This document shows, piece after piece, positions 9,729 to 40,400 of a stretch of DNA of 64,000 nt. The stretch is from positions 32,001 to 96,000 of IMG/VR virus record IMGVR_UViG_3300020193_000005; one strand, 5' to 3'. Each line of letters starts with the position of its first letter. The stretch's first letter is position 1. The notes under the pieces were generated by a model. It was given only the letters and a program-made list of their open reading frames with translations, was not told where the DNA came from and searched no databases. The position numbers and the translations under genes are program-made. Source of the stretch: a virus.

Positions 9729-12700
9729 GTGATCGGCGAAGAAAATAACGACCGCAAGGAGAACCCGAGAAGCAGGGTGTACTTGCCGTTCGGATTCAGG
9801 AAAAAATCCATCCCGAATCCCTATACGGCACGCGACGCCGACCTGGACAGACTCGTCCTCGAAGGGATACCGACCGTCAATCTGGGTCGCGGAATTCCGG
9901 ATCCGACGCCGTTCGGCGCGGATTCGGGGCTGATGCGGAGCCAATCGCGCAGGCGCTTGGCCAGAACTATCGGAAGATTGATTCCGAAAAATCGATCCGA
10001 CTCCGGGGCGATGGCGGACGAAAAAAAGCCCACGACCCCCTCGAGGAACGAAACTCCCTACGGCGGAGATCAGACGATAATCGAGCAAGTGGTCAGCGAG
10101 GCTCGTTTTCAAAAAGATTTGGCCTCCAGGGGGGAATGGAAGGAAATTCACTACGACCACTACGACTGGTGGGCTTACCCGATCGATAGGGGAAGTGCCC
10201 AGTACGGTGATTTCTACAACGTCGCCGGCGAACCCGTAAAGAGATTAAGAAACAACATGGATTTCATAAAGGCGCTCACGGATACGATTTTGGTTCAAAC
10301 CAGGGCGCTCGGATACAACCTTTACGAAAAAACTTGGATGCAGGATCCCGAGTGGGAAAAGGGTCAGGACTGGGGTCTTGCCTATCCCACGAGAATATGG
10401 AAGATGACCAGATCCGCCCAAATTTTCGGTTTGGAGGAGGAATTTGAATCGCTGATAAACATGCAAAAGGTTTTGCAGGAGAGCGGAATCCGATTCAACC
10501 ATCGCAAGTATTGGGAAAGCCCCGGAACGGTGGACGATGTTCCGCCCATCGAGAGTTACGACGAGCCGAAAACATACTTCCGTGACTACTCGTTGGGCGC
10601 GAAACCGCGAACCCCATACGGAGAAGGAGGGGGTTCGTCCCCGTATTATCCGACGGAATACGATGAATGGGAGGCGGGAATAGACACGGAGCCCAGAGTC
10701 GGCGAATTGGAGCCCGACGACTTCGAGTCGGCGGTCGCCGGGGCTTTCGAGTTGGCGGATTTACTCAGGGAAAAATCCGAAATCGGCGACCTGGAATATC
10801 CGTACCACCACATCTCGCCGGATCGGAGGGAAGACATTGCCGATACGATAGATTTCGCGCTCACCCTGATCCCGATCGTCGACGGAGACGGATTCGACAC
10901 GGACAGAAAAGAGACGGCCGACGCCCTGGAAAAATTCGTAGTCGGCGACGATTTGTATCGAGATGACTCCGAGCTGTTGGACGAATTGATTTTACAGTTG
11001 AGAGATTCGACATACGACGGATTCTTTTCGTTCGACGAAGACAGCGGGAGGATGTCCGTTGAGCCGAAAATGAATAGGTTCAATGATCGGGTGACGACTT
11101 TGTACAACGAAGGCAAGACCCGCGAAGAGATCGCCAAGGAGCTCGACCTAAGCGTCCGTCAAGTTGATTACCTCCTAAACAAGCTCTTCGCCGGCGGGTT
11201 GGCGAAATCCCGCCACACACAGCGGGAAAAGACGGAGGAACTCATCGAACGGGTGGTGACCATGCACAACGAGGGGAAACGCACCACGGAAATCGCCGAG
11301 GAGTTGGGGCTCACCAACAACAGGGTGCAAAGATACCAATACATTGCGAGACGACGGGGATTGCTGACGACGCCCCGGAAACGCACTACGGCAGAAACGG
11401 ATGAGTTGATGAACGAGGCCGCGAGGTTGTACAACGAGGGGAAACCCCGGATGGACATAGCGAAGGAAATGAATCTTCCCGGGGAAAAAATTGGCACTCT
11501 TCTGCAACGAGCGAACGAGCGCAAGCTGATTCGCGACTACAACCCTCAAGGATTGGGAAAATTCGGGAAAACCACACTGACCCCCGAAAAAATCTCCGCC
11601 GCCGCCGACGGGTACAGGCAGGGAAAGACGTTCGCGCAGATCGCGGAAGAACTCGCGGTCACGGAAACCGCCGCCCGCAAACTCGTTGTGCAGGCGAGAC
11701 GCTTGGGGCTGGACACGGGCTCCCCTCGCAGGCGAACTCCGTCCCAGATGGAGGAATTGCTTTTGGAGGTGGCGGTCAGATACGAGGAAGGAAAGACATT
11801 CGCCGAAATCGGTCAAGAACTGGACGTTACTCCGTCGGCTATCAGGGATATGGTCGACAGGGCCGTCACGCTCGGTTTGATTCGGAGACGCGAGCGAACG
11901 CGCAGCGACACGGACGAGTTGATGAACCAGGTCATGGCCAAGCGCAAGGAGGGCAAGACCAGACGAGAAATCGCGCAGGAACTGAACGTCCCCGAAAATC
12001 GGGTCGCATACTTGGTCCAGAGGGCCAGGTTGATGAAAGCATCCGAATCGACTTCGACCGACGGATTCGACGGCGAGACGGGGAGAATGTCGAGAGAACC
12101 GGAGAGAGGCGATCTGGTCAGATTCGGTAGAAGCTCAAATAATCGGTACGTAGATGAACCCGGATCGCTCGGCAGGGTGGTGAAGGTCGCCCGTGACGGA
12201 ACCATCTCCGCGGATTTTGGAAATGGTCCGATAAAGCTGATCCCCGGCGAGGACGATTTCCTAGTGATCCCGAGACAAGTCGACGCGCTGTACGAGCTGA
12301 CGGACAACGACGGCAACGTGATGTACCTACCGGTCGAGGACGTGACGTACCCCAAGATCACCCGCGCCATGGAGGAAGCGATGAAAGCCGGGTACAGAGA
12401 AACAGGAATCATCCGAGGAAACATGCGAACATTTTTCGACGAAGCCACGGGAACCTTCAAGACATCCAGAATCGAGTCGAGGATTCTCAACGCGGAGAAC
12501 ATTGCGCCGGAAACGACGGCACCGGTTCCCCCTCAACCCGGATACCCCGAGTTCACTCGAATCGTCGGTACCGACCGAGCGCGAGGCGGGGGCGTCGACT
12601 CCGGCGCGATGGAACTGCCGGACGGAATAGACGAGGAACTTGAGGATTACGTTTACGACGATCCGCTGTTCGGTCCATCCATAAAGCATCCTCTCTTTTT

Positions 12701-15700
12701 TTGGATAGCCCCGATCACCCCGGAAGTGACCGACCTGATAAACGCGTCTTTCGCGCAAAAACGAGCGTCCGCGGATGAAGCTTTGGCAAAAAAGAATTGG
12801 GGCAAATACATATACCTGCACGAACGCCCCTACCGTATCGACGCCTTCGAGGACGTCATGGACGAGATGACGGATCAGGAGTACTGGAGCCGACTCTCGG
12901 ACATATGGGTGGACAGCGAGAACATCGGGGCGCAACCGAGTCGCTGGAGAGAGCTGCTACTAAGCGACCGCGGTTCGCGCGAGTCCTTCATGAACGAGAA
13001 CGAACGCGCGGAACTGGCGAAATTGCCGCAAAAGTTCACCGTATACCGCGGTTATTCGGAAAACGATCAGGAAGAATTCGGGATGTCGTGGAGCACCGAC
13101 GCGGAAGTGGCGGAATGGTTCGCCAGAAGATTCGCCAGAGACGACGAAAAGATCATCATGGAGAGCTTGGAGATCTCCAAGGACGAAGTCTTCGCTTACG
13201 TCACGCGACGTGGCGAGGACGAAATAATACTGGACATACGCAACGTCGTGGAGAGAACGGCGAAGAAACAACAGTTGCCACGGAAACCAAAGACGAGAAT
13301 ACCCTCCAAAAATAGGAACCTGACTCCCCCCGGCGACAGCGGAGCGATGAGTTCGCTAAGCAAGGAACAGATCGACGAAATGACGCAAAGATACAAAGAC
13401 GGAGATTCCGTTCTGGAGTTGGCTAACGATTACTCAGTAACCCAGGGCACCGTCTACTATCACCTGAGAAGAAAAGGCGTCGCCAGAAGGCCGGTCGGAA
13501 GGCGGAAAAAGCCCGGGGGATTTTCTGCCATAAAACGAAGATTGAAGGATTCCCTGGGACAAATCGGACTATTCGCCGCCTTCTCCAACGATCCGCAAAA
13601 AACTCTGAGATCTTCCAACCAAATGAAAACTTACTTGCTTTCCGAACCCGTCCGAACACCGGACGACCTACATCCGGACGAGTTCGCATTGCGTCCGAAT
13701 TTCGTTCGAGCCGCGATAGCCGCCGGATTGGGACTATTCAAGGCATTGAACCATAAAACCTTCAAAGTTCAGGGTCCGATAGCTAGGGAATTCACGGAAC
13801 TAATGGTCGGACCCAAGATGGTCAACGACGCCATCGGAACGACGTACCCGACGCTCCAGGAATTGGGGGAAATATTCGCGGCCAACGCAATCGTCAGGGC
13901 GCGAATCAGGTCTCTTTTCGGAATCAATGATCCGACCGCGCTCGCGTGGGCGATCCAATCGGGAGCTCCACTCCGCGAAGGCGGAGAGAGGATATTCGAC
14001 ATACCCGAATCGCCTCCGTACACAAGAAACCTGGTGGGGGGTGGCTATGTCTATTTCGAGGGAATCGACAATAGAAGACCGTTCGTTCTATCGGTCATGG
14101 CGAATATGCCCGAAGCGGTGAGGAGCAAGTTGTACTGGGATAGTGACAAGATTCCGTGGAGCAAGAGAGACGTGCCCATAACTGTGGAGAAGGGGGAACT
14201 ACCAGGCGGTAGGAAATACGAACGATCGCCCGTGGACGAAGTTTTACCGCTTTTTGTTCCCGGTCACGATACGAGTCGATTGGATTTAATCAAGACGAAT
14301 CACTCTTCGCCGGACGGAGCGAGGCTGGCCCAATACGTGGAAATGGCGAAGGAAGAAATACGACAGTGGGCGGCGGATCACGACGAATGGGCCAGGAGAT
14401 GGGCACAAAGCGTATATCGAATCATGAGCGAAGCTGGTCTGAGCGACGACGAAATAGCGGAAGTGATAAACAGGGACTGGTTGCAAAACATAACTTTCGG
14501 AATCGGAGATGCGGGAGACATATTGCAAAACGCCATGTTTATGGCACTCCTTATGACGAGATCCAAGTTCGCCCCGGTGGTGCATCTAGAAAACGGATTT
14601 GACGATCCGAATTTGGCTCTTCATGAGTTCTTTCACGTCCACCTCGGTCAAGGCTTCACGAGACACGGCGAGTACGTCGCCTTCAGGGGACCCGCGGAAG
14701 TTTACGACTCCTGGTATCCCCACACGCTATTCGCCTTAACCTTCAACAGCGCTTTTTGGCAAAACGTAGTGAAAGAGTCGGGAGGAACGGAAGAGCTCAG
14801 GAAAGAAATGCGAAAAGCCGTCGAAAAAATGCTCGCCCCGGAGTACGACTCGGACGTTCGTCTTCTTTTTGAGCTTTTCCCGGAATATCAGCGCGCCTCG
14901 GCGGAAATCAGAAAGAAACTCAACGAAATGATCATGGCGGAAATAATTGAGGACTTCGAAGACTCCACGGGATTCAGGAGGGTAGCGGGAATGCCCAGAG
15001 CAACCGAAATAATAAATGCTCCTGGTTTCAGGATTCCCAAAAGACTATGGCCGTGGGGTTCCAGCTACGGAGGCAAGGAAAGAATCGCCGACGTCCAGGG
15101 TAAAACATACGCGAAGTTCGAGGAGAGAATTTTCGGGGTTCCGGATCCGACGTCCGGCGACGGCGGGAATACGGGGAAAATGTCGCTGGAAAGAACTCCG
15201 AAATTCGACGGCGGTCACAGTAGTAGGGGAAGGGGAACTCCGTTGGGTGACGGAAAGGACGTCGCAATGAGGGAGGTCGCCGACAGCGCGATCGTCGAGC
15301 TGGTCGGCAACCGAGGAAGTAGCTCGCTCACGACCCTAAGATTTCTCGGACCCTATAGGGCTGGAAGCAGGGTCGTGATGCTTGCGAGGAACGGCGAGTT
15401 ACGTGGCGTGCCGTTGAAGAACGAAACCAGATCGGCGATAGCCAACGCCCAGAGGAACGGAGCGAGATTCGTCGTGGGGGACATGCCCGACGTGGATTCT
15501 CAGTTCGTGGACTTTTTGGAGGAGATCGGAGCCGACTACACGATTTATCACGCCGGAAACTCCCCGAGATTCCGTCCCGGATCGAAAATCCCCGGGACGA
15601 ACGCGGGAACATTGTCCGAGACGAGAGCCGGCGAATCGGATTCTCCGAGTAGGTTGGAGACGATCGGAAGAAACTTGGCCACGGCGGCCGCCGAAGTGGT

Positions 15701-16271
15701 CGCCGCCGGTTTCGAAGTCAAGGTGTACGGAGGGCGATCCGACTCCCAGTCTGGCTCGAATCCGATCGGCGGGATGCTCTCCGCCCTGAACAAAATGAGG
15801 GAAAACCCCGATGCTCCTACGGGAAGAAAATTGGCGGGGTTGACGATGATGATGAGCGCTATGGAAAAATACCTGACGGATTCAACGAACCAACGCCTAG
15901 TCGTCGTCTCGAGGGGAGATCGGGTCGTCGGGGCGTCGTTGATCAAATTCCCGGAAAAGGACTCCGTGGCCGAACTCAGATACGCCGGTTCGTTGTCTCC
16001 CGTGAGGGGGGTCGGTAGCGCCATGGTCGCCGAAATCATGAGGCTCGCGGCGGACTCGGGCAGATCCATAATCGGAACTTCGTCTCAAGATTCGGTATCC
16101 TTTTGGAGAGGGGTCGGCGGGAAAGACGCCGATTGGGACGGTCCATATCGCGGAAATACGATATTTGAAATCGACGACGTGAGAAAGGTCGTCGCCGCGA
16201 TAGACGCCCGTCGCAAGGAATTGAGAGCCCAAAAACTACTAGGCACGACCGACGGGGGGAACCCTAGATGA
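9729..16271 (+). CDS. Giant putative polyprotein B (2180 aa). Order: leader peptide, OGFr_N/DUF1810-like, 6xHTH, DUF4314-like, ART-like, HTH plus HExxH, SLOG-like, GNAT
   Basis: AGGAG RBS before the GTG. Seven DSGxM-type motifs separate the domains. Motifs seen: HYDWWAYP, EGKT..EIA.EL repeats, YRG..MSWST..RGEDEII, HEFFH, FVVGDMPDVD, RGVGSAMV. Confidence 0.9.
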   Translation: MIGEENNDRKENPRSRVYLPFGFRKKSIPNPYTARDADLDRLVLEGIPTVNLGRGIPDPTPFGADSGLMRSQSRRRLARTIGRLIPKNRSDSGAMADEKKPTTPSRNETPYGGDQTIIEQVVSEARFQKDLASRGEWKEIHYDHYDWWAYPIDRGSAQYGDFYNVAGEPVKRLRNNMDFIKALTDTILVQTRALGYNLYEKTWMQDPEWEKGQDWGLAYPTRIWKMTRSAQIFGLEEEFESLINMQKVLQESGIRFNHRKYWESPGTVDDVPPIESYDEPKTYFRDYSLGAKPRTPYGEGGGSSPYYPTEYDEWEAGIDTEPRVGELEPDDFESAVAGAFELADLLREKSEIGDLEYPYHHISPDRREDIADTIDFALTLIPIVDGDGFDTDRKETADALEKFVVGDDLYRDDSELLDELILQLRDSTYDGFFSFDEDSGRMSVEPKMNRFNDRVTTLYNEGKTREEIAKELDLSVRQVDYLLNKLFAGGLAKSRHTQREKTEELIERVVTMHNEGKRTTEIAEELGLTNNRVQRYQYIARRRGLLTTPRKRTTAETDELMNEAARLYNEGKPRMDIAKEMNLPGEKIGTLLQRANERKLIRDYNPQGLGKFGKTTLTPEKISAAADGYRQGKTFAQIAEELAVTETAARKLVVQARRLGLDTGSPRRRTPSQMEELLLEVAVRYEEGKTFAEIGQELDVTPSAIRDMVDRAVTLGLIRRRERTRSDTDELMNQVMAKRKEGKTRREIAQELNVPENRVAYLVQRARLMKASESTSTDGFDGETGRMSREPERGDLVRFGRSSNNRYVDEPGSLGRVVKVARDGTISADFGNGPIKLIPGEDDFLVIPRQVDALYELTDNDGNVMYLPVEDVTYPKITRAMEEAMKAGYRETGIIRGNMRTFFDEATGTFKTSRIESRILNAENIAPETTAPVPPQPGYPEFTRIVGTDRARGGGVDSGAMELPDGIDEELEDYVYDDPLFGPSIKHPLFFWIAPITPEVTDLINASFAQKRASADEALAKKNWGKYIYLHERPYRIDAFEDVMDEMTDQEYWSRLSDIWVDSENIGAQPSRWRELLLSDRGSRESFMNENERAELAKLPQKFTVYRGYSENDQEEFGMSWSTDAEVAEWFARRFARDDEKIIMESLEISKDEVFAYVTRRGEDEIILDIRNVVERTAKKQQLPRKPKTRIPSKNRNLTPPGDSGAMSSLSKEQIDEMTQRYKDGDSVLELANDYSVTQGTVYYHLRRKGVARRPVGRRKKPGGFSAIKRRLKDSLGQIGLFAAFSNDPQKTLRSSNQMKTYLLSEPVRTPDDLHPDEFALRPNFVRAAIAAGLGLFKALNHKTFKVQGPIAREFTELMVGPKMVNDAIGTTYPTLQELGEIFAANAIVRARIRSLFGINDPTALAWAIQSGAPLREGGERIFDIPESPPYTRNLVGGGYVYFEGIDNRRPFVLSVMANMPEAVRSKLYWDSDKIPWSKRDVPITVEKGELPGGRKYERSPVDEVLPLFVPGHDTSRLDLIKTNHSSPDGARLAQYVEMAKEEIRQWAADHDEWARRWAQSVYRIMSEAGLSDDEIAEVINRDWLQNITFGIGDAGDILQNAMFMALLMTRSKFAPVVHLENGFDDPNLALHEFFHVHLGQGFTRHGEYVAFRGPAEVYDSWYPHTLFALTFNSAFWQNVVKESGGTEELRKEMRKAVEKMLAPEYDSDVRLLFELFPEYQRASAEIRKKLNEMIMAEIIEDFEDSTGFRRVAGMPRATEIINAPGFRIPKRLWPWGSSYGGKERIADVQGKTYAKFEERIFGVPDPTSGDGGNTGKMSLERTPKFDGGHSSRGRGTPLGDGKDVAMREVADSAIVELVGNRGSSSLTTLRFLGPYRAGSRVVMLARNGELRGVPLKNETRSAIANAQRNGARFVVGDMPDVDSQFVDFLEEIGADYTIYHAGNSPRFRPGSKIPGTNAGTLSETRAGESDSPSRLETIGRNLATAAAEVVAAGFEVKVYGGRSDSQSGSNPIGGMLSALNKMRENPDAPTGRKLAGLTMMMSAMEKYLTDSTNQRLVVVSRGDRVVGASLIKFPEKDSVAELRYAGSLSPVRGVGSAMVAEIMRLAADSGRSIIGTSSQDSVSFWRGVGGKDADWDGPYRGNTIFEIDDVRKVVAAIDARRKELRAQKLLGTTDGGNPR
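9816..9917 (+). repeat. Shared 34-aa N-proximal peptide, copy 1
   Basis: NPYTARDADLDRLVLEGIPTVNLGRGIPDPTPFG. Confidence 0.95.
11070..12035 (+). repeat. Six tandem divergent helix-turn-helix repeats (about 55 aa each)
   Basis: YNEGKTREEIAKELDLS, HNEGKRTTEIAEELGLT, YNEGKPRMDIAKEMNLP, YRQGKTFAQIAEELAVT, YEEGKTFAEIGQELDVT, RKEGKTRREIAQELNVP. Confidence 0.9.
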
Positions 16272-16586: not shown

Positions 16587-19500
16587 ATGTCGCCGATATT
16601 CGAGAACATACCACCCAACTCAAAGGTGATAGCCAAGCACGGGTCGAAGGTCCTTTTCGGTCTTAGGAACGGGTCAACCGCCTTATACGATTCGAAAAGC
16701 GGATCCTTCAGGCGAGGGGACGACGCGGATTTGATGGCCATGGACGACTTTTCGTCGTCGCACAACGGCGAATGGGCGGACGACAGATTGAGGAGATTCG
16801 CCGCTTCTCGAAAAACCCTGAACCTGGGCTCCGATATTTCCTTCAAGGTGGTTCAAAAGCCTAGAAAAAGTTCCTCCCGAGACGACGTCGCACAACCACA
16901 AGACCTGGCCAACATGCTCCCCAGGGAGTTCGTCAACTGGGCCAGATCGTACGTTCCCGGGCAACGTTTACCGATCTCTCCCCCGGGTTACAGCGGAACC
17001 GATTCGTGTCTGGGTCAGAACGCCGGCGGTCGATCCTCCGCAAAAATGCCGAACGCCGACGAGTTGACTTCGATGATTCTGAGAACTTACGGTTTTCCGC
17101 AAACGGCGCCGGTCGACGCCACGAAGGAAATGCGCTCCGCTTACGAAAAGGGTCTCCTGGGCAGAACGATTAGGGAAATGGCGACCCCGAACATTCTCTC
17201 GATGGTCGCCGCGGCCAGGGGATTATGGGTTGACAGGTTGAACAAGATTCGCTGTTTGGGCGGACCCGCGGCGAACAGATTCACGAATATCTTCGGGGTC
17301 GGTTGCGACATTCCGTCGTCCCCGGCGGAATTGGCGCGCGACGCGGCTTCCGCGGCGAGAGAAGCGGCCGGAGACGCCTCTCGCGCCGTCGGCGAGGCAA
17401 TGGAGAGAGTCGGAGAAGCGCGAGCCGGAGTGGGAATAGCCAAAGAAAGAGTCGGCGAGACGATAGAAGCGACCGACGAGATTCCGGGCGATCTCTCCGT
17501 GACCAGAATGATCGGAGAGCTCCGACAGTCCGAACAAACGTTATTCGATACCGATACGGGACAAATGACCAGGCGCGCAGGGGGAAACCAACCGCTCCTC
17601 ATCAACTCGGCGAACGCGGTCGCCGATGAGACGAACAAGAAAGCCACGCGTCGCGTGCTTATTCACGAGGGCGCCCGCAGATGGATAAATTCCTGGGTCG
17701 AAAGACAAAAGGGCGAAGATCCGTCCAACCCCCTCGGCGTTATCAGATCGGCCATACGCAGACGCAGGAGTCGTCAACAGGCGACGACCACGGGAGCGCT
17801 GACGCCACAGCAGCTCAACGAGCAGGAAGTGAAGTTGTACGCACAGGGAGTGATTGAACTCATCAGACTAACGGATCCGGAGCTGGCGGACGAATTGAGC
17901 GAACCAAGCCATCTTTTGAACGACATCAACGATCCGGTCGCAGTGCGTAACGCAGGTAACCAAAATAGCAAAAACGTAATAGAAATGATGCTGACCGACG
18001 CCCTCGGCCCAGACGCCGGAAGGGACAGAGCGAAGCTACAGCGCTACGCGGCGAATTTATTCGCCATCTATCAGCCGTACATCGAAGATAGGCAAAATCA
18101 TCCCGAATTGAAACAAACTCCCGTCAACTTTGCGCCGCAGAAAAATTTGTGGGAAACATCGAACGTCGTAGCTTTCTTTACGGTTCCGGGTTTCGGCGGA
18201 GGCAGAAATCAGCCTCTTAGCAACTACGTCGCCCCAACGCCGACGAATCCAGGATATGCGGGTTCTGGGATGCTTGACCTTTTGGACAGGGGAGAGTTTC
18301 CCTTATTCGGAATGGGTTATCCGGGCAACAACGTCGTCGAGGCGGTAACGAGGAGCGGCGTAACCCCGCTGGACGGATACAAGCACACCACGGATTCGTT
18401 CTACAACAAAGTGGTCAAAAATATTGGATCAGGAAACGCTCCGTTTCACGGCGTGTACCTTTTTGACTCGAGACTCATAACCGAGCCCGAAAGTTTGATG
18501 CGACTATTCGATTCCCCGGACGGACATTTGCCCGTTTCGGGTTTGTCGCCGGCGGCGGTCCTCCAGCACACCTTGGAACACGAACCCAAACACTTGGTCG
18601 CGTTTTCGCAGAGGTTGAGATCGAATCTCGGATACACGGAAGCCGAATGGGCGGAAAGACTCGGAAGACAGTTCAAACTCGGGGGATCGGGATTGGAGGA
18701 CTCGAGGTTCGGCGATCCCATTCTGGGAGAGAATCCGGATCACGTTTACGGACCGATAGATCTTTTTAGGGACGCTAGGAGCGGGACTTTCATTCGTAGG
18801 CAGGTGGACGAACTGATGATAGCGCTACGACATCCGGACTACGAGGGGGTGGTTTTGCCCGACGGCCTGCGGGGGTGGAAAAGTACGGATCCGGTCCTCA
18901 ACGGAGCTCAAAAAATTGCGCTTCTATGGAAATTTTACGCCAACAACATATCCTGGGATCGCACTACGGCCCAAAACGTCCAGAACTTATACGCGTTGAA
19001 AGCCGGCAAGCAAGCGGCGGCGCAACTCGTTGCGGAAATAGACGAATCGCTCAAGAGACGCGGGTTCGACGACGGCGTTCGGCGAATACTCCAGCAAGCG
19101 ATCAGAGAAGATTTGATGTATTACGAAGACGGTCCCCTTGACCGAAGACGGATACTCGGTAGTTCCAGCGAAGACGCGTTGCATCAATCAATAAACGAAG
19201 CCGCCATCGACGCCGAGATAGCCCAACGAATCAGCGCGGGAACGCCCAATCCCGACAGAGATCAGGTAATAAACGATTTGATAGCGCAAGGAAGGGTGAT
19301 TCCGCTCGGCAGTCGACCGGATCCCGGTCGACCAGTAACGGGGCCACTGTCGCAACACAATCGACTTTCGGGACAGAACAGGTTGACGGAAAAGCAAATA
19401 GTGCTGGCGCAGAATTTCGTCGGCGACGCCTACGCCATGTCCTCGGCGATCGAGTTGGACGCCGAATTCAACACGGCCATTGCGCAACCCGATGCCCCGG

Positions 19501-29992: not shown

Positions 29993-32900
29993 CGATCTCG
30001 TTTTCGCCCCGATTCGCGACGTCTATACGGATCTGATATTTTCCGTGCTGCTGAGCGACGGAATAAAGTGCAAGGCGATAGGAAACATGAACCAGGGCGA
30101 CGACTGGGCGCGTTGGGCGAACGGGTCGGGCCTGAGTAGTTCGCTAATACTGGATTCGCTCGACTACACGTTACGAGCCGACGAGTTCTCTCCCCTAACG
30201 GAGTCGTCCCTGATCTCCGTCAAGTCGATCCTCACGGCGGACGCATACGACGCGCTTTCCGTTTCGCTGGATGGCATTTCCATCAAGTCTCAACCCGACG
30301 ACGACGAATCGCAAGCCGACGAGGATCTCCCGGAGCCCGAACAGGAGCCCGTTTCCGCCATATCGGTGATCGAGGTGGGGATGTCGTTGTTCGACGCCCA
30401 ATTCAAGAAATTGGCGGTCGACTACAAGGCGAATTATCAGAATACGAAGATAGACGTGTCCTCCTTGGCGCTGAGCGTAAAAGCCACCAAGTCCGTGTGG
30501 GCAAATAAAGCGGACGGCGTCGCTTGGAAATCATTGGTCAGCAACTCCTACTCCGACGATCCTGGCAAATTGATTTACGGAAAGATGTACGGGCGCGGTC
30601 TATCGCGGCGTTTCGCCATGTCCGTAAAAGCGGTTTCCAACATGGATCCGCGAACGGCGAGGGACGCCGATTCGGACAGATTGGTCCTCGAGGGCATTCC
30701 CACAGTGAACTTGGGTAGGGGGGTTCCCGATCCGACCCCGTTCGGTGCAGCGAGGCTCGCCAGAAGAACCAGAAAAAACCGAGATTACGCCGTAGCCGAC
30801 GGTAAAAACAGAAAGCGAAGAATGGAGTCCCGTTTCTCCGCCGAAATCAGGACGGGCGGATTGGATTCAACAGCCGTCGGAGGGCGCGATTACTTAAAAG
30901 ACGACGAATCCGATTCCGGAAAAACGACGTTGAACAGAAGAATGAATCGCAGAACCGCGGGAAGCTCGACGAGCGCGACCGCGAGAGGAACGAGCGCTTC
31001 GTTCGATTCGGGCAATCCGGCCCAGTCGGCGACGCGCTCAACTAGAGGAAGGTTTCCGAAGACTTCCAGGATCATTCAAAAAATAAGGAACAATCCTCCG
31101 GTGAGGAGATTGTCGGAAAACGTTTTCGGGGATCGCAAGATTTCGGGAAAGAAGCCGAGACTCGACAAAAGGACGATGGCCAATCGATCGACCGGGTGGC
31201 TGAATAAACTTTCCGAGAGAATAGCCTCCGCCAGTCCCCCGAAAATGGACACCGGTTCGCCGATAAGGGAAAATAGAAGAAGAAAATCGCCCTTCGCCGG
31301 CGAGAGCGACACCGGTCGGATGAGGCGCGTCGTCTACAGCCAGACGACACCGATGAGGAGTTTGTTCGGATTGAGAAACTCAATGGACGACGATTCCGCC
31401 AACAGAAAGAATCTCTCCGAATATACGCCGACCGAAAGGGCGCTGATACTCGGAGAGGCGAAAAAGGTCAGAAGCGACCTTCTCTCGCAATGGAGATCGC
31501 GTTTGGGTCTATCCGAAGACGCCGACGTACTCGAAGACGGAATTTTGACCTATATCCAGGATCAGGAAGCACGTGGAAAAAACGTCTATCCGCTCCAGGT
31601 TCAGGCACATAATTTGCTGATCCTCGACGAAATGCTCTGGGATGCGGAAACGAAACCCGACAAGAACATGGACAACATGTGGTGGAACCTCAAGGAAAAC
31701 GCTAGAGCCAGAATAGTTTCCGATTCTGGCGTTCTCGTTCCTAGCGCCCAAAAACAGGGGGACAACGATCTTTCCAGGCCACCGGCTCGTCCGGTAAAAA
31801 CCCCGATAACCGCTCCTCCTCCGAAGAGCGCCGACGAAATCGTCAAAACTCAGGTCGCGGCAAACGACAATCCCTGGAAGATGGATAAAAATACGAGAGA
31901 TCAGGTCATGTCGGATCTGGGCGAATGGTTGAAAAACTCTCCGGAATTCCTAACGTTTAGCGATAGGTTCGGCGAAAACGAAACCGAGTGGGACGAATTC
32001 AGCCCGTCGGAACAATCCGCGTTGAAGAGGGAAATGGGATACCGCGAGAATGAATTGGTCAACACCATAAACGAAATAATGACGCCGACGTCTGCGAACC
32101 AAAAGGATTACCGAATCAACGGCAGAATCACCCCGGAATCGTTGAGAAACATGACGAACGATTCCTACGTTTCCCTCAATCCCGGCGGCGCAAATCTCTA
32201 CCCAGACATCAGATCCCTGATCGCCATCATGGATCTTCTGGGGGCTCCGAACTGGGACGTAAAAACCCAGAAAGAAGCGTGGAAGGCGATCGGAAACAGA
32301 AACAGGAATGTCGTGTCGAAGCGCGCCGACATACTCCGGAGAGATTTGAGACGCGGGGGTAGGTACGGCGGCGTCGTCGGAGAGCGAACGCAGGTTACGC
32401 CTAAATCCAGGGCGACGGAGACCGAAAAGCCGGTAGAGCGGCCGGTCGAGCCGGTCACGACCGAACCGACGCAAACCCAGAATCCGTCGGTTCGAGCGAC
32501 GCAGTCGCGTCCGTCCATCAACCTGCCCAGAACCGCTAGAGGGGGCGCCGTAAAAACGGTGACGCTCGTCGACGAGGACGGGAAAGAAATCGTCAAAGAG
32601 GTTTCCGCATTCGGGGATCCCTTCCAATACGACCACGAAGATCAGTACGTTGACCGAAACGGAACTCTTTATTTATACGAAAGGCAGAGCAAGCTCTACA
32701 GAAATCCCGTCACGGGTGAATATCTCGAGAACTATTCGGATCCGGGCATGGAAGTTGACGTCGGCATAGATTCCGAACTAGAGCATCCACCGGTAAACCA
32801 GAGGGTACAAAAGTCGGCGAAAGTCGGGAATGTCGTCTCCTACCCGCAACAAAACGTCGGTGGCAAGCAGCAAAAACCCAGGTTCTTCAGTAAAATTTCG

Positions 32901-35900
32901 AATCTCAGGCTAGCCAGGGACGGGGGGAAAAATTCCGACAAACTAAGCCATTTCCAGGTTTTCGCGACGGCTCTCGGAATTTCCGAATCGGAACTGTTGG
33001 AGAGACTCGGCATGACGGCGGATAGTGGCGGAAAGGTCTTTTATCTTGCGCCTGGCGTTTTGGAAGGTCTGAGCCCGGACACGGCGAGACAAGCCTACGA
33101 AATTATGTTGATGCTAGACGACGAATACATGACGGACGATATGAAAATCGAGGAGTTGACGACCCTCGACGTAATAGACGCAAGCGAGTTGTTCGCCGAC
33201 GGTCGTCGGGCGACGGCGGCCGAGGTGTACGCCTACTACGTCGATCCAGACTTGTTGGATTTGGGTTATTCTGCGGATCCGGGGATTTACGGTCTTGCTC
33301 CCGGAACGGCCAAAGAACGAGTTCTGGCCCACTACATCTCGGGTTCTCTCCTTCTCCCGAGAGACAAAGATCCAAGCTACGGCGACTCCAACTTCGCGGT
33401 GGCGATGCCGGACGGTTCAAAATTGGTCATAGGTCACGACGTCGGTTCTAGAGGCAGCGCGCGAGCCATTCAGTATCCGAAATACCTGAACATGGATCTG
33501 ACGACGAGGCAAATCGTGGTTCCTTTCGATTTATTCCTCGAAGGACAGAGTCGCTTCGTCAACCGATACAACCAAATCGGGGTTCCGCTCATTCCGGGTA
33601 TTCCCGACATCGGAGACGTAAGACTGAGCGTTCCGAAATTGGTCGCCGTTAGGTATCATCCTGCCGGCGTCGCCAGACAGAGGGGCTCGTATTGGAAGGG
33701 ATCCCCGAACGACGAGCCGATGCGCGTCCTGGCCAGGAAGGTGAATAAGGCGATATTAGACGACACGGATTCGGATTGGTTTGAGGCCATAAGAGACGCG
33801 GTGAGGAAGTACAACCAAGCGTCCAACCAAATGCAAACGGCTCTAGCCGAATGGAGAAAAATCAGGGGTAATCGCAGCAGGGTAAAGGGACCGAAACGCT
33901 CATTCATCATGGAACAGGAAAAATTGGAGGCGATCGGAAAAATAATCACCGAAATACTGGCTCCGAACGCGCATAAAGCCCTCAATAGGGTGCGCGGGAC
34001 CAAGTCCGCTACCGCGAAAACGAGGAACCAGGTTCAACGGATGAGGTTCAACAGGTCGTCGAGCGCCGGAGCGAAGAACTCGCCAGATCTGGAAGAACGA
34101 CAACTTTATCCGACTCACGACGAAGCCGGAAATATTATCGTAAGGAGTCCGGAGACGTTGATCGAGTTGTCGAAACTCAACCACACCGAGGGATTTTTGC
34201 CCATGATCAAGCTCGACGTAAAACCAGATAGCGATTACGAGATTTCTCAACTAACCGAAGATCAAATTAGGAGCCTGGCCAGCATAAGGCTCGCCGAGGA
34301 AACGTTGATTGATCCGAGCGACCCGGATTTCGAACTATCGGAAGAATTGAAAATAGAGAGCTCCTCTGAACAGAACGAGGAGAGAGTGGCGAGGGCATCG
34401 GCCAGAAAAAAAATGTCGCAAAAGGTGGCACTGGATCTCGCCGGCTACACCTACAAACCCGTCGCGGCGACTCAGGTTGAATTCATGGAGTTGCTTGCTG
34501 ACGCCGACGAACTTGACCCCGTACCAGAGGATAAATTGCCGACGAATTATCCCTTAGACGCAGACTGGACCGTGCTGCCGATAGTGAGGGGAATAAATCA
34601 CAAAATAGACGTTAGAAAACCAATTAGAGAAAAATTATTTAAATGGTTTTTCGGCGGAAACAAATTTACCGACGAGGCGGCGAAGGAACTTATTGACGGT
34701 CCTTATTTCGTTCCCTCCGGCTACAACGGCGCCGTCGGCGGCGAAGGTTTGAACTTTTATCACGCCAGCGGTGGCGGCTCCGGTGGCTACACTGGCGGGA
34801 AAAACGACAAAGTCATGATGGCCGTGATGCCGAACGCGAGAATTTTCCACCGCGGTTTGTTGAAGTATCTTGCGACGCAAATGACCGTGCTACACCAAAT
34901 GGTGTCAGCGGCGATCTACTCGGACTCCGGCGTTGAGAGAGAATTACCGATAGACGAAGACGCCTGGAACTCGAAAAACTTCGATTTCGCAGATAATCCG
35001 AAGATCTACTCGCATTTCTACTCGCCGTACGGGGGGGCTTACCAAAACTACGAAGTCAGGTACATCGACGACGACGGAAGCATCGCGCAATATACCGTCT
35101 CGGGCTCTCAGGGTTTCGGCGATTCCCTGGATATATCGAACGTTCAGGCACAAGAACAAGAACCCGTTCCGAAGAAACCGAACCAAGAAGACACAAGAAC
35201 GCTCTCCGAGCAGAGATACGATATTTTCAGAAACCTGTGGTTCGGTATTTTCGGGGAAGAACCTTCGGAGAAATACAGGGGCCTCGACTCGAGCGACGCC
35301 AAAACCATGAACGAACTACTGGAAGAAATAATGAAGAAACTCGTCACGGTCGTTCCGGCCCAAGCCCAGGAAAGACGAAAAAGGGGCGATAGTTTGACGC
35401 CGAAGTCGAGGCGCACGGGGATTGCTGACGACGCCCCAAATAGAAGTTTTCCGATTGATCCGAGATTTTTTGACATTGACTTCGTAGCGGAGACGAGCTT
35501 CAATGCCGACTATTACCTAAGTCCGGAAGAGCTTCGCGAATATTCAATTGCGGAATGGGCGAAGAGAACCAGGGCGCAGATGCTGTCGTGGTTCATTCAG
35601 GCGGAGATAGCCAAGGGTGCCGAAATAGCAAAAGCCAGATTGGCTGGCAAAATCCCGTGGAACGAAGAAATAAGGAAGTATGTCGCCTTCCAGGAGGTGC
35701 TGCTAAGACTTGAGGACGAAGTCGTACTGGGAACGATAATAGGAGTCGACGGATACTGGAGCGACGACGACACGGATGAACTGCTCAAACTCACGGAAAC
35801 ACCGGCAATCTCCGAAAGGTCGATTGGGAGAATGTTTGTTCGGAACAATAAAATGATCTTTTCTCCCGTTTACCAAGGGAACTTGGGCGGGCAATTCATG

Positions 35901-36107
35901 CTTTTGAACAGAACCGCCGTCGTCGCCAACGACCGAACGTTATATCCGTCACAGGTCGGAGAATTTTTGCAGTCCCTGAGGAGCGCGTTCGGCAAGCCCG
36001 GTGGTCGAGAACGGTATGCGCCTACGGGGAACATGTTCAATAATTCAGTAAGGTCTACTTCCTGGTGGAAGAGGCTAGGATTGAAGGCGCCCTATGGCCG
36101 ATCCTGA
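29985..36107 (+). CDS. Giant protein E (2040 aa) with the shared leader peptide, a DTGRM site and a possible C-terminal ART-like toxin domain
   Basis: GGAG RBS and GTG start overlapping the previous gene. Leader at 30645. IVRG..GAVGGEGLNFY..IGVDG..MLLNRTAVV. Confidence 0.85.
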   Translation: MNNDLVFAPIRDVYTDLIFSVLLSDGIKCKAIGNMNQGDDWARWANGSGLSSSLILDSLDYTLRADEFSPLTESSLISVKSILTADAYDALSVSLDGISIKSQPDDDESQADEDLPEPEQEPVSAISVIEVGMSLFDAQFKKLAVDYKANYQNTKIDVSSLALSVKATKSVWANKADGVAWKSLVSNSYSDDPGKLIYGKMYGRGLSRRFAMSVKAVSNMDPRTARDADSDRLVLEGIPTVNLGRGVPDPTPFGAARLARRTRKNRDYAVADGKNRKRRMESRFSAEIRTGGLDSTAVGGRDYLKDDESDSGKTTLNRRMNRRTAGSSTSATARGTSASFDSGNPAQSATRSTRGRFPKTSRIIQKIRNNPPVRRLSENVFGDRKISGKKPRLDKRTMANRSTGWLNKLSERIASASPPKMDTGSPIRENRRRKSPFAGESDTGRMRRVVYSQTTPMRSLFGLRNSMDDDSANRKNLSEYTPTERALILGEAKKVRSDLLSQWRSRLGLSEDADVLEDGILTYIQDQEARGKNVYPLQVQAHNLLILDEMLWDAETKPDKNMDNMWWNLKENARARIVSDSGVLVPSAQKQGDNDLSRPPARPVKTPITAPPPKSADEIVKTQVAANDNPWKMDKNTRDQVMSDLGEWLKNSPEFLTFSDRFGENETEWDEFSPSEQSALKREMGYRENELVNTINEIMTPTSANQKDYRINGRITPESLRNMTNDSYVSLNPGGANLYPDIRSLIAIMDLLGAPNWDVKTQKEAWKAIGNRNRNVVSKRADILRRDLRRGGRYGGVVGERTQVTPKSRATETEKPVERPVEPVTTEPTQTQNPSVRATQSRPSINLPRTARGGAVKTVTLVDEDGKEIVKEVSAFGDPFQYDHEDQYVDRNGTLYLYERQSKLYRNPVTGEYLENYSDPGMEVDVGIDSELEHPPVNQRVQKSAKVGNVVSYPQQNVGGKQQKPRFFSKISNLRLARDGGKNSDKLSHFQVFATALGISESELLERLGMTADSGGKVFYLAPGVLEGLSPDTARQAYEIMLMLDDEYMTDDMKIEELTTLDVIDASELFADGRRATAAEVYAYYVDPDLLDLGYSADPGIYGLAPGTAKERVLAHYISGSLLLPRDKDPSYGDSNFAVAMPDGSKLVIGHDVGSRGSARAIQYPKYLNMDLTTRQIVVPFDLFLEGQSRFVNRYNQIGVPLIPGIPDIGDVRLSVPKLVAVRYHPAGVARQRGSYWKGSPNDEPMRVLARKVNKAILDDTDSDWFEAIRDAVRKYNQASNQMQTALAEWRKIRGNRSRVKGPKRSFIMEQEKLEAIGKIITEILAPNAHKALNRVRGTKSATAKTRNQVQRMRFNRSSSAGAKNSPDLEERQLYPTHDEAGNIIVRSPETLIELSKLNHTEGFLPMIKLDVKPDSDYEISQLTEDQIRSLASIRLAEETLIDPSDPDFELSEELKIESSSEQNEERVARASARKKMSQKVALDLAGYTYKPVAATQVEFMELLADADELDPVPEDKLPTNYPLDADWTVLPIVRGINHKIDVRKPIREKLFKWFFGGNKFTDEAAKELIDGPYFVPSGYNGAVGGEGLNFYHASGGGSGGYTGGKNDKVMMAVMPNARIFHRGLLKYLATQMTVLHQMVSAAIYSDSGVERELPIDEDAWNSKNFDFADNPKIYSHFYSPYGGAYQNYEVRYIDDDGSIAQYTVSGSQGFGDSLDISNVQAQEQEPVPKKPNQEDTRTLSEQRYDIFRNLWFGIFGEEPSEKYRGLDSSDAKTMNELLEEIMKKLVTVVPAQAQERRKRGDSLTPKSRRTGIADDAPNRSFPIDPRFFDIDFVAETSFNADYYLSPEELREYSIAEWAKRTRAQMLSWFIQAEIAKGAEIAKARLAGKIPWNEEIRKYVAFQEVLLRLEDEVVLGTIIGVDGYWSDDDTDELLKLTETPAISERSIGRMFVRNNKMIFSPVYQGNLGGQFMLLNRTAVVANDRTLYPSQVGEFLQSLRSAFGKPGGRERYAPTGNMFNNSVRSTSWWKRLGLKAPYGRS
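30645..30746 (+). repeat. Shared 34-aa N-proximal peptide, copy 3
   Basis: DPRTARDADSDRLVLEGIPTVNLGRGVPDPTPFG. Confidence 0.95.
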
Positions 36108-36537
36108 TGAAAATAACCTGACCGCGGAAGAAATTTATTCCATGATCGCCGATTTTGCCGAACTTTCGGAATCGGCGAAATATCCTCCTTTTTCGGTTTC
36201 GCACGTACCGAACCAGTTGCTTGAGGCGTTGAACAGGGAGTTCGAGGACGTCGTGCTCCGCGGAAAGTCCTACGATTCTTTTGACAAAGTGAAGGAGGAA
36301 TTCGCCGAGGGCATCTCCGAGGCCAGGGCTTGGTCCAAATTGTTCGATACTCCGAAGGACGCGGCCATCGAATACCTGAGGAGGAGTTACGAGAAATTGG
36401 GCAGGGATCCGAAGAGCACTCTCGCCATGGCGAGGGGAATGCACGAACGGCTCGGACGAACCTACGATTCCAATAAAATCATTCCACCTCTGGCGGAACA
36501 TATGGGGTTTGGTCAATACGAATCGCAGGACGAATGA
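36094..36537 (+). CDS. Small acidic hypothetical protein (147 aa)
   Basis: Overlaps the end of protein E and the start of the next gene. Confidence 0.75.
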   Translation: MADPDENNLTAEEIYSMIADFAELSESAKYPPFSVSHVPNQLLEALNREFEDVVLRGKSYDSFDKVKEEFAEGISEARAWSKLFDTPKDAAIEYLRRSYEKLGRDPKSTLAMARGMHERLGRTYDSNKIIPPLAEHMGFGQYESQDE

Positions 36538-37397
36538 TGTCCGACGACCCCAACTCGAAAAGACAAGTGGCGAAAATAGCCAGATACATGGGGTGCAGGG
36601 GGGTTCATTTATCCTCCGAAGGAAAATGGCTTCCGTGCGCGGATGCCGAAACCCTGAGAAGACTGAGCACCGCCGCCGAGGACGATTCGTGGATAAAAAA
36701 GTACGAGAAGTCGCTGTTCCTGCTTCCCGGCGGGATCGTGGCCGAAAAAACGGCTTACACCAAACCCAAATTGAGGGAGTCTATAAAGAACAGAATCATG
36801 GCGGGATCGCGCGGCGGAAAACCGGGTCAATGGTCGGCTAGAAAAGCCCAATTGGTGGCCATTGAATACCGTAAGGCCGGCGGCGGATACAGGGGGAAGA
36901 AAACAAAAAAACAAAGATCTCTCTCCAAGTGGACGAAGGAAAAATGGACCACGTCCGACGGCAAGCCGGCGATAAGAAAAGGAGGGACCAGACGGTATCT
37001 ACCGTCCAAGGCGTGGCGCAAGCTGACGCCCGCACAGAAAAGAGCCACCAATCGCAAAAAAATAAGCGGCAGCAGGAAAGGTAGGCAGTTCGTCGCCAAT
37101 ACCGATGCCGCCGCGGAAGCCAGACGATCGGCGACTAAATCTCTGATTTCCCAAATGTCAACCAAATCAATCGTCGTACAGAATTTCTCCGAGCTCAACG
37201 GTCGCGGTTCCAAGAGAAAAAAGAGGGGGAGGCGCTGGGAAAAATTGCACGAAAGGGGTCCTTTCTCCGCCCTCGGAACGCCCGGTCTTGGGATCACCTC
37301 AAGCCCGGGAGTGATCTCGGCATCGCTGACCAAGAGGCTCTACGACGCTAGCGACGACGTCAAAAATTATCTGGATATCAAAAGACGTAGCTACTAA
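36534..37397 (+). CDS. Very basic protein with a GC.G.H..W.PC motif and a DUF5872-like domain
   Basis: YTKPKLRESIKNRIMAGSRGGKPGQWSARKAQLVAIEYRKAGGGY..SLSKWTKEKW..RYLP; ATGA overlap. Confidence 0.75.
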   Translation: MMSDDPNSKRQVAKIARYMGCRGVHLSSEGKWLPCADAETLRRLSTAAEDDSWIKKYEKSLFLLPGGIVAEKTAYTKPKLRESIKNRIMAGSRGGKPGQWSARKAQLVAIEYRKAGGGYRGKKTKKQRSLSKWTKEKWTTSDGKPAIRKGGTRRYLPSKAWRKLTPAQKRATNRKKISGSRKGRQFVANTDAAAEARRSATKSLISQMSTKSIVVQNFSELNGRGSKRKKRGRRWEKLHERGPFSALGTPGLGITSSPGVISASLTKRLYDASDDVKNYLDIKRRSY

Positions 37398-37474: not shown

Positions 37475-40400
37475 ATGACCGAAGATCACGAACAAGGCGA
37501 TTGTTGCCCGCTCTCGCCGGACGGGCATTCGCCCGAGGAAAAATCGTTTTCTTTCGGTCCGAGACAAGTCAGGCCCGACGAATTTGACGCATTTGTTGAC
37601 AAGGAATCCGCTAGATCGAGGGCTCGACAACTCGGGTGCATAGGAATCAGGCAGTACAGTTCGACCGCCGGCGGTTTGATATGGATGCCCTGTAGTAACG
37701 AATCGGACTACAGAAGGGTGACCGGCAGAAGTCCCCTGGGAAGAAGGGAAAGAAGACGGATTCTTCGAAACGAAATTGAATCCGTCATGAAGAAAAAAGA
37801 TCTGGGCCCGTCACTCGGAATGAGCGACGCAAGGGACATGAACCCCGCCACGGCCATAGACGCCGACCTGGACAGACTCGTACTCGAGGGAATACCGACG
37901 ATCAACCTCGGTCGCGGGGTGCCGGATCCCACTCCGTTCGGAACGGAAATTCCGAAAATTCCGGAAACTCGAAGAGTGTTGGACGCGCCGGAAAAAATTG
38001 AGGCGAGAACGCCGGACGAACCCAGGAAGAAAAAACTGAAGCGGATACGCAAAATAATCGAACCCGTCGTCGCGCCAAAGGCGTCCCCTCTTTCGTCTGC
38101 GGCGAAAAAATTCGGAAAAATCAACTTTCAAAAAATAACGAAGAAAAAGAAACCGAAGAAGAAAAAACTCAACTATTCGACGGTTATCGGCAACATGGAG
38201 AAACTCCTGACGGATTTTCCCGTCGACTACTCCTTCGTTCCGAAACCGATCTCCGACGATGCGAGATCGAAGCTCGGCTTGACGGGGGCGGCGGGACTAC
38301 CGGCCGAAAGAATAAGATCCGGCGCGGCGATCGCGGAAATTTCGGAACAATCCATAAACTCCATGAAAAATATTTTCCAAATGATCGGATCGCAGACCGG
38401 AAATCAATACGCGTCCTTGATTGATTCGCGAATAGCGAAGATGAATTCAGCCCAGAGACCCGTCGCCCCTCGGCCGCCGACCGGATCGGCGACCTTACTG
38501 GGCGCCATTCTCTCCGTTCAGCGTTCCAATAACGAGGAGTTCATCGGAACATACGGAGTTGGGGATTCCGATTTGTTCTCGGAGAATTACGTATCGTCCA
38601 TGGAGAAACTCATATCGCAGGGATTTTTTCCGGAGACCGCGTCCTATCTGGTTTCCAATTTCAACGACATGGACGGAGGGCAGAGAAAAGCGGCGAACAT
38701 GCTCGGCATGTCGGATCGCTCCCTCAGGAGACTGAGGCGGGCGGCCGAGAAATCGAACAAGGTCTTCGGGGTCGGTACGGAAACGATCGGCTTGGCGAAG
38801 GTGGACTCGGATCCTTTTGAGGTGGCGACCGCGGTCCTATTGGCGAGAAACTATCTTCTAGAGAACGCTCGCAAAAACGGCGTCGATTACGACATGTGGC
38901 GGGCCGTCAGCGAATTGACCGGGGCGAACAAGCAGGTCACGCGCCGAATGTTTTCCTCGATTTTTTCCGCGAACAGAGATTATCTCGGGGAGGTTTACGG
39001 GGACTCTCGAAACGTCTCCGAGTACGGTAACGGGCTACTGAGGCTCGCCAGCGGCGCGGCGGCGAACATGTCGGAGAACGACGCGACCGACCTGAACTCG
39101 ATGATGAACGACAGCGATTCCGGGGCTATGGCCATATACATTCCCCCCTCGAATCGGAGACCGAGGGATATCAACCCCAAAGCATCCCTGATTTACCCGA
39201 TGCACAAACGTCAATCCGGTAGTTGGAGCGAAATAGCCAAAGACGTTCAAAAAATTCTGCGAAAGATAAAGAAGAACTTTCGCCACGTGGGGGACGCAGA
39301 ACCGAAGCGATTCTCGTCTCTGGAAAAAGACATCGGGCAGATCCTGTTGGAATTGTTGCCCTACAGTTTCACCGACTACGCGAGGGAGATAGCGATACTT
39401 CAGGCGATACTGAGGGATAGGGTCGAATTCAATCTTCTTCCCATCGGAGAAGTGGGGAGTAACATCGGAGGAAAATTCGTTCCGGACGTACAGAAACTCT
39501 CCGTGTTGGGGCAAAACGGATTGTTGGATTTGTTCGAACCGATCAATGCGGTCAACGCTAGAACGCCAGAAAGAGACCTCGTTCCGAAACCCCTAAGTCT
39601 CGTGAGGGCGATATCTCTTCTAACGGAGGCGCTCGATATCGCCTCCCGAGCCGCTTCCGAAATTCTCGCCACGACCGGCAGGGAGCGATTTTACGGTGAC
39701 ATCGGTTTGAGAACGAGACAGGAACTCGAAAGGCGAGACAAGTCAGCAGTCAATTTTCTAGTTTCCGACGCCTACCGCACCAGAGACTACGCCGAAGACG
39801 TGGATGGGTTCTCCCCGTATGAGCAACTCGTCATTTTCGGTCGAGGAATGAAGACGACAACGGACGACGTCGGGCAGATTCGCGATTACCTCAGCGATCG
39901 CCTGAGAAGATTGGAGAGAATCACCAATTTCGGTGGCACGATGGATGCCAGCAAAATAAACATGTTCGAAGCGACCGAGTCGGGGCTCGGCGACGAAATT
40001 ATCGACGCAATCAGGGGCATAAACGAAGCTTGGTTCAACACTCTTCTCCCCTCCTACGTCAAACCGGTACCGGTGGCGGATCCGTCGACTCGAGAAATTC
40101 GCGAATTGTCCCCGGGGAGTACGGCGAGAAGGTACAGAACGGCGAAACAATTCTCCGACGCGCTGGCCGAGACGTTTGACTCGCTATACATGCGAAACGC
40201 TTCGCCGGATCTCCCGTCATCTCTTTTCGACCCGGAAGGCGAAACGATAGTCAAGGACAGATTCTTCGACGCCTACGAAGAACTTTTGCCGCTGATACTG
40301 GATCCCGAGAATCCGAGTCGCCCAGCGTTTACGTATTCGGAGATAGATGCGGCGATCCGGGAATCTTTCGCCGAACTATTGGATCGAAAGCCAAGAGGCG

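Follow-up and report, generated by a model that had tools for sequence, protein, structure and literature searches.

Why do several giant proteins, encoded close together in one phage genome and otherwise unrelated, carry the same short peptide? The question is raised by a 64,000-nucleotide stretch (hereafter the window) that covers bases 32001-96000 of the IMG/VR virus record IMGVR_UViG_3300020193_000005, a linear record of 109,136 bp with an estimated completeness of 73%. The record itself is referred to as G000, and related IMG/VR contigs, on which the linkage of the peptide to head genes was judged, as G001-G035 and so on. The original prediction, made from the window, had noticed a near-identical stretch of 34 residues on four of the giants and had taken it for a cleavable capsid-targeting signal. 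Here we describe a fifth copy of this peptide, which we call the tag, and trace it to its source, the protein that carries the prohead protease.

All four copies lie on the plus strand exactly where they had been placed, i.e. in protein C (2180 amino acids (aa), 9729..16271) at 9816..9917 (aa 30-63), in protein E (956 aa, 24175..27045, plus strand) at 24271..24372 (aa 33-66), in protein H (2040 aa, 29985..36107, plus strand) at 30645..30746 (starting at about aa 219-221) and in protein J (6466 aa, 37475..56875, plus strand) at 37841..37942 (aa 123-156). Their consensus is (N/D)PxTAxDADxDRLVLEGIxxxNxGRGxPDPTPFG, with 25 of the 34 residues invariant. A profile of the copies recovers them at E-values of 7e-30 to 2e-26 and adds a fifth, at aa 582-615 of giant protein A (genome 29532-29633, plus strand, about 2.4 kb upstream of the window start), so that the four bearers are real but the genome has five. 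In the rest of the 109-kb record the profile search gave nothing above noise. Protein A (3750 aa, genome 27789-39041, plus strand) reaches into the window with its 3' part (1..7041), and the five tagged proteins together comprise 15,392 residues. That the bearers are otherwise unrelated is borne out by an all-against-all BLASTP comparison of the giants, in which the tag region is all that A, C, E, H and J have in common; a further match, of 108 aa, links A and C. The tag is N-proximal, as had been claimed, in C and E, but it is internal in J, H and A. Similarly, it precedes the first DSGxM site, a motif recurring in the giants, in A (first site at residue 782), C (65) and J (548), but E has only the variant NVGAM and H has no such site.

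The copies are 71-86% identical at the nucleotide level, with a synonymous divergence (pS) of 0.37-0.71 against a nonsynonymous divergence (pN) of 0.05-0.18. Synonymous sites are thus near saturation while the peptide has been kept, which indicates that selection acts on the peptide and not on the DNA. Judging from this divergence, the copies are old and not recent DNA duplicates. The tag could in principle be a functionless scar, left by the duplication of a cassette or by a recombination hotspot at which cargo is shuffled, and in A and J it does lie at the junction between a conserved head-module part and a variable giant cargo. We disfavour this explanation as highly improbable, given pS values of up to 0.71 with a pN of at most 0.18, the retention of the peptide across contigs of 49-61% G+C and the invariance of its core aspartates in 55 homologs of A. 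Within G000 the copies average 85% mutual identity, and the tags of E and H resemble the other G000 tags more than they do their orthologs in the related contig G004 (50%). Such likeness within one genome, despite divergent synonymous sites, would suit a single shared receptor.

Distribution and origin of the tag

A search of 1.84 billion protein representatives with the tag profile returned 41 hits, 34 of them matched in a single stretch. Nearly all of these 34 are proteins of 850-6391 aa, two being short (220 and 496 aa), and their tags lie at about aa 26, 35-50, 120, 225 and 535-580, corresponding to the ortholog classes C, E, J, H and A. Over this search space the tag appears to be confined to giant proteins of related uncultured phages, and when it was looked for among the cellular proteins of the set, which the original prediction had named as the place where its presence would count against a head function, it was absent. 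Weak multi-stretch matches in cellular proteins (P0043-P0048) were rejected, as they cover only 12-14 residues around DxDRxVL; by eye we take the matched regions to be Kelch-like or haemolysin-type repeats.

Four relatives (G001, G003, G004 and G020) keep the gene order and have 2-5 tags each in syntenic giants, and two fragments, G002 and G005, have one tag each, in an A-class and a J-class open reading frame (ORF). Among 36 larger contigs searched, G020 alone has a strong multi-copy tag. The clade defined by the capsid protein is far wider, comprising more than 378 viral contigs and 2484 database proteins at E <1e-30, and complete relatives such as G007 and G009 have two giants only, one A-like and one D-like (D being a tag-less giant of G000). 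On contig G035 a 2706-aa protein (12489-20609, minus strand) is headed by a second, diverged tag with a DVDGDG core followed by PDPTPSSMP. It sits 14 kb beyond the capsid gene, outside the block between portal and capsid genes, and is the only such case that we found; what the tag accompanies is therefore giant cargo and no fixed place in the genome. The tag profile found no match in the head module of Gordonia phage Gray, whose capsid protein is 45% identical and whose protease has an acidic scaffold-like region joined to it instead. Literature searches on DUF6321, a domain of protein A, and on this phage group yielded no description of the tag.

Protein A begins with an S78 prohead protease domain (aa 32-177), whose catalytic His72 and Ser136 are invariant in the alignment of 55 homologs, followed by DUF6321 (aa 241-312). 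In the A-like, protease-headed giants of G007, G009 and nine further, likewise more distant contigs, a diverged tag stands at the same place, as in DPFTARDANLNGIVGEGLF...PDPTPDG and DLDPRTRVDKNRDGTLFD...PDPTPDG. The common form of A is short, consisting of protease plus DUF6321 in 750-1050 aa. It has 1560 homologs at E <1e-40 and, at this position, a shorter version, (F)DGDGDG(F/M)xTGxDGxDN(I/V)PY; an intermediate version reads DPDAIDADxDR(I/L)VQEGTPFERP. DxDxD occurs at aa 430-720 in 99 of 115 short protease plus DUF6321 proteins (about 86%), and the sixth residue is G in 58 of the 99, N in 18 and R in 15. Downstream, at a median distance of 25 aa, 95 of the 99 have an xMP motif, which is typically PRMMP, and 76 have a [STA]GxM motif beyond that. 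In the numbering of A, D590 and D592 are invariant in the 55-sequence alignment and D588 is more than 90% conserved. Moreover, the EEK-x-LG motif of the protease proteins matches a (E/K)K(A/S)LG..IG motif found upstream of the cargo tags. Our main new result is that the tag is an expanded form of a DxDxD(G/R) element native to the protease protein. As the upstream motif is shared too, it was a whole segment of this protein, longer than 34 residues, that was copied onto C, E, H and J.

With 18 tag segments searched at E-values of up to 10, Pfam contained no credible match, dockerin included, and the tag profile had no match among PDB sequences at the same threshold. AlphaFold2 predicts the tag alone without secondary structure, at a predicted local distance difference test score (pLDDT) of 55. 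In a model of A(1-680) built with 55 sequences, the tag region has a pLDDT of 38-48 and no strands, and the protease, the DUF6321 helices and two further domains are modelled at 80-93. As predicted, the tag resembles a linear binding motif rather than a domain, with no sign of packing in cis on the protease.

The original prediction had likened the core of the tag to a Ca-binding loop. At the motif level this finds support, since all five copies read DADxD, with aspartate at positions 1, 3 and 5 of a DxDxDG loop, and the full DxDxDG is present in the 58 protease homologs mentioned above; on the other hand, the sixth position is R in all five G000 copies, with G found in the J tag of G004. One could go further and propose that the loop has a structural or switching role apart from any addressing, for instance in a Ca-dependent compaction or activation of the giants, and the near-invariance of the three aspartates in the 55 homologs agrees with this. 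We nevertheless think that such a role is improbable as an explanation of the tag, because conservation reaches far past the loop (NPxTA, GRG, PDPTP), because the tag is predicted to be unfolded, and because there is one copy per protein at any protein size, always ahead of the cargo; the arginine at position 6 argues in the same direction.

Proposed docking in the prohead and release of the cargo

We lean, with some reserve, towards the view that the tag is a portable prohead-docking peptide from which the cargo is released by cleavage. From the peptide, the selection on it, its distribution, genomic context and descent and the predicted lack of an autonomous fold we infer the remaining parts of this reading, namely docking, a receptor, Ca binding, cleavage and delivery. 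The tag would be the core of a larger address module (about 55-80 aa) without a fold of its own. This module would start with the (E/K)K(A/S)LG..IG motif, continue with the 34-residue core and a basic RLARR-like stretch, and in many cases close with a cut motif that ends in Met. This module would have been born in the prohead-protease protein A and copied, in a sub-lineage, onto C, E, H and J. During prohead assembly the tag would bind a site inside the shell and thereby enclose its bearer, and the DxDxD loop may bind Ca2+ in doing so. The S78 protease would then cut the Met-type linkers, freeing the modules past the tag into the capsid lumen, from where they would be delivered along with the DNA. 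The tag would remain with the part upstream of it, which is little in C and E and includes the protease module in A.

The receptor that we favour is the HK97-fold major capsid protein (477 aa, 57204..58637, plus strand, with a likely start at 57264; Phage_capsid, E 6e-43), either through its N-terminal scaffold (delta) domain of about 120-140 aa or through the inner face of the shell. The portal protein may be considered instead, and so may the acidic protein B, which would be the main alternative by analogy with the scaffolding core of T4.

Five considerations lead us to favour docking. The element is ancestral in the protease, the one protein that needs to be enclosed in the prohead; it sits where the HK97 protease gp4 is said to have its targeting tail; its bearers are too large to enter after the shell has been assembled; a cut-type motif commonly separates it from the cargo, as in T4; and the mutual likeness of the G000 copies would suit one shared receptor. 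The original idea of a cleavable capsid-targeting signal is partly supported, on the strength of the location between portal and capsid genes, the S78 protease in A, the recurrence of this arrangement in relatives, its absence from cellular proteins, the frequent cut-type motif next to it and its descent from the protease protein. What fits less well with that idea is the internal position in three of the five proteins.

The idea of cleavage comes from the linkers. Both tag-linker junctions that had been pointed out, PFG-A-DSGLM in C and PFG-NVGAM in E, are present as described. The DSGLM of C (9921..9935, plus strand) lies one residue past the tag and is a putative protease cut site that would detach it, and the NVGAM of E (24373..24387, plus strand), a variant cut-type motif, follows the tag directly. 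In A and J the first linker-type motif comes 170-390 aa past the tag, and in H there is none. A lineage-specific linker is found 0-20 aa past the tag in C and E of G000, in a 1264-aa protein of G003, in C and J of G004 and in several database hits. In total, the full-length giants of G000 contain 27 DSGxM sites (11 in A, all past the tag, five in C, three in D and eight in J), which in the window span 259-55789, and SGAM occurs 25 times in them against 0.32 expected. Relatives use other motifs, i.e. PTASM in G001 (TASM observed 10 times, 0.18 expected), ISGRM in G003 (SGRM 13 times, 0.15 expected), xAGM and FAxAAM in G004, EAGM in G020 (17) and, not ending in Met, RFSSG in G007 and RLSSG in G009. 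These lineage-specific motifs point to a co-evolving linker or cut site. At the boundary between the delta domain and the body of the capsid protein lies a GANM (within GGRNGANM; 57615..57626, plus strand), in which N and M do not vary among 43 homologs. This may be where the capsid protein is cut during maturation, and the motif ends in Met like the cargo linkers. For the tag-bearing lineages, a Met-ending cut site of the S78 protease is a reasonable inference from these motifs.

The same observations could be read differently, with the tag as an element of protease recruitment or of a processing junction, which binds the S78 protease or marks the first cut, and with entry into the capsid decided elsewhere. 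Its ancestral presence in the protease protein itself would suit this, as would the Met-type motif past the element in 95 of 99 short homologs and in several cargo proteins. However, giant protein D (2527 aa, 16587..24170, plus strand) has three DSGAM sites and no tag, H has a tag without DSGxM and, as a weak negative, the AlphaFold2 model of A(1-680) leaves the tag, at its pLDDT of 38-48, unpacked on any N-terminal domain. We consider recruitment unlikely.

A further possibility is that the tag acts at exit, binding the portal protein or the tail channel and ordering ejection, with no role in loading. The portal protein of G000 (762 aa, genome 25427-27715, plus strand, upstream of the window) is fused to a C-terminal MuF domain (PF04233), a portal-MuF fusion is present in all three tag-rich contigs that include a portal gene, and MuF domains are portal-associated carriers of phage toxins (PMC5576092). 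On the other hand, contigs that lack MuF (G007-G010, G017 and others) have the element in their protease proteins, and a cut right after the tag, as in C and E, would sever it before ejection. Co-occurrence also led us to reject portal-MuF as a universal receptor: MuF is found in eight of 24 contigs, five of which lack multi-copy tags, and it is absent from many element-bearing contigs. The contigs with a MuF fusion outside the tag-rich group have short protease proteins. Finally, a prohead contains about 60-90 copies of an HK97-type protease (PMC12749128). A 12-fold portal would offer fewer sites than that, which makes the capsid lattice or the scaffold domain the likelier ancestral receptor. 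An exit signal thus seems to us slightly less likely even than protease recruitment.

Several observations weigh against docking as we propose it. In seven contigs that encode a giant A protein no tag was detected. D has its three DSGAM sites without a tag, so that either the tag is not the sole way into the prohead or these sites are not cut there; conversely, H has a tag and no DSGxM site to be cut. The modules ahead of the tag in A and J are encoded in relatives by separate head-block genes or, in the case of A, as shorter proteins, and if they are able to enter the prohead already, a further address seems redundant. The distant relatives whose linkers do not end in Met (RFSSG, RLSSG) have GANM in their capsid protein all the same, which weakens the tie between linkers and the capsid protease. 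Finally, the HK97 gp4 sequence, which was read by eye with no alignment or profile run, contains no obvious DxDxD or PDPTP element.

More tentatively, and with less confidence than for docking itself, we propose that these phages possess a modular way of loading an HK97-type capsid, in which a disordered, possibly Ca2+-dependent peptide of about 35-55 residues, derived from the docking segment of the protease, would enclose any protein placed behind it (up to 700 kDa), and in which the protease would release the cargo at programmable Met-type linkers. If true, over half of the recovered genome would be given to deliverable polyproteins. Docking alone, if real, would account for heads filled with polyproteins, would mean that the protease's own address has been reused as a general tag, and would give a defined means of placing foreign proteins inside HK97-fold shells. 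Likewise, the tag makes the hypothesis that DSGAM-type linkers are processed a testable one.

The head-gene block and its cargo

On the minus strand upstream of the window lie genes for a tail sheath protein, a baseplate J protein and a large terminase, from which we conclude that the phage is contractile-tailed. A PAPS reductase (phosphoadenosine phosphosulfate reductase; cysH-like) gene is also found upstream (genome 18131-19261). The plus-strand block reads portal-MuF, A, a 123-aa ORF, B, C, D, E, F, G, H, I, J and capsid protein. Its portal-to-capsid interval of 61.5 kb, or 56% of the record, holds all five tag-bearing proteins. After the capsid gene, at 59163-62747, a nuclease is encoded on the plus strand, and a C-5 cytosine methylase and an SNF2-family helicase on the opposite strand.

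The short protease proteins of relatives end in a C-terminal domain to which the 123-aa ORF (7117..7488, plus strand) is similar, and this ORF appears to be the detached end of an ancestral A protein; accordingly, the insertion of giant cargo into A seems to have taken place between the tag and that domain. Protein B (674 aa, 7693..9717, plus strand), which has no tag, carries a net charge of -77. It contains six tandem MMP(A/V)RRPM-(N/D)EEDSE units, is rich in Cys at its ends and has, in its C-terminal part, two copies of a DGxYPI...DLxNAI...GRA motif. Across the clade the C-terminal half is conserved at 52-74% identity, and B may be a scaffold or core protein, possibly cut up at the MMP units.

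Of all proteins of the block the most strongly conserved is F (189 aa, 27337-27906), which belongs to no known family and is 77-85% identical in G001, G004 and G020, its identity in these closest relatives exceeding that of the capsid protein, and 59-67% identical in remoter ones. Between F and H lies protein G (697 aa, plus strand), and ahead of J protein I (287 aa, 36534-37397, plus strand). In G003, protein I is fused to the N-terminus of a J-like giant, ahead of the tag. A comparison with PHROGs assigned no function to B, E, F, G or the small ORFs.

The N-terminal parts of the tagged giants are modular as well. The first ~120 aa of J (37475-37840) correspond to a domain that relatives without J encode as a small standalone protein, which in G007 and G009 adjoins the capsid gene. 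In H, the tag is preceded by an N-terminal domain of about 220 aa that is also present in H-class orthologs. No known domain was recognised in E or H. Beyond its protease and DUF6321, A contains DUF4314, sigma-70 region 4-like helix-turn-helix and WYL domains, and arrays of sigma-70 region 4-like helix-turn-helix units are found in both A and C. The C-terminal region of J (47375-56875) contains NUDIX and zeta-toxin-type kinase domains. As far as domain assignments go, the content of J, C and A fits a host-directed payload.

The host is probably an actinobacterium, although we regard this as a hint only; it follows from the capsid protein, which shares 44-47% identity with its counterparts in Gordonia Bendigovirus phages and Brevibacterium phage Cantare, and from a homolog of A that NCBI assigns to an Ilumatobacteraceae metagenome-assembled genome. 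The clade to whose protease protein the tag can be traced is very large and uncultured, and its phages are probably actinobacterial.

Relation to known systems

Experimentally known capsid-targeting peptides are, to our knowledge, restricted to a few phages (T4, P1 and, for its protease, HK97), and we know of none that is common to a megadalton-scale set of cargo proteins in an HK97-type system. A close parallel is HK97, whose protease gp4 reportedly (Duda, Oh and Hendrix, in 2013, J Mol Biol 425:2765) has a C-terminal capsid-targeting region past the catalytic domain. Both proteases are of the S78 family, the tag of A likewise lies C-terminal to the catalytic domain, past a conserved module that extends to about aa 575, and in both systems the capsid protein has its own N-terminal scaffold domain. 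What differs here is the DxDxD(G/R) core with a cut-type motif next to it and its copying onto four proteins of 956-6466 aa. More loosely, encapsulin cargo-loading peptides are short, unfolded, C-terminal sequences of about 10 residues that dock inside an HK97-fold shell and have no Asp loop, and the Asp-rich DxDxDG Ca2+ loops of dockerins mediate modular docking.

In T4, the capsid targeting sequence of IPI-III and Alt is, according to the passages of PMC9024508 that deal with it (citing Mullaney and Black 1996), a stretch of about 10 residues at the extreme N-terminus, which binds the gp22 scaffolding core and is cut by gp21 after an LxE-type site. As in T4, a short peptide is common to unrelated proteins and stands ahead of a cut site, here a putative cut motif. 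The tag differs in its length of 34-55 residues, in belonging to an S78/HK97-type system and in its Met-type linkers. An extreme N-terminal position is not seen here, as the tag is internal in three of five proteins, and a linker-type motif adjoins it, at 0-1 residues, in C and E only. These differences, together with D (DSGAM sites, no tag) and H (a tag, no DSGxM), speak against a simple T4-like signal.

The very large cargo is reminiscent of phage P1, where an N-terminal packaging signal addresses DarB, a 250 kDa anti-host protein, to the capsid, and where the major capsid protein also has its own scaffold domain (PMC9024508). The Dar proteins, however, have no consensus (PMC9024508), whereas here one peptide is found in five proteins. 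In terms of cargo, a parallel is offered by the polyvalent proteins, described in the passages searched of Iyer et al. 2017 (PMC5512222) as giant multi-domain proteins that are predicted to be packaged, processed by a peptidase and codelivered with DNA. The features by which those passages recognise them are present here, i.e. many unrelated domains (helix-turn-helix arrays, WYL, NUDIX, zeta toxin), a phage with portal and terminase genes, and a peptidase; yet the same passages mention neither an address peptide nor an S78 fusion, and the peptidase there is mainly a zincin-like metallopeptidase (PMC5512222).

Functionally, then, the tag may be likened to the signals of T4, P1 DarB and HK97, but judging by its sequence it is a member of none of these groups. 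What we consider new is an address-like peptide of an S78/HK97-type system, derived from the protease protein and built around a DxDxD(G/R) core, that is common to five giant cargo proteins.

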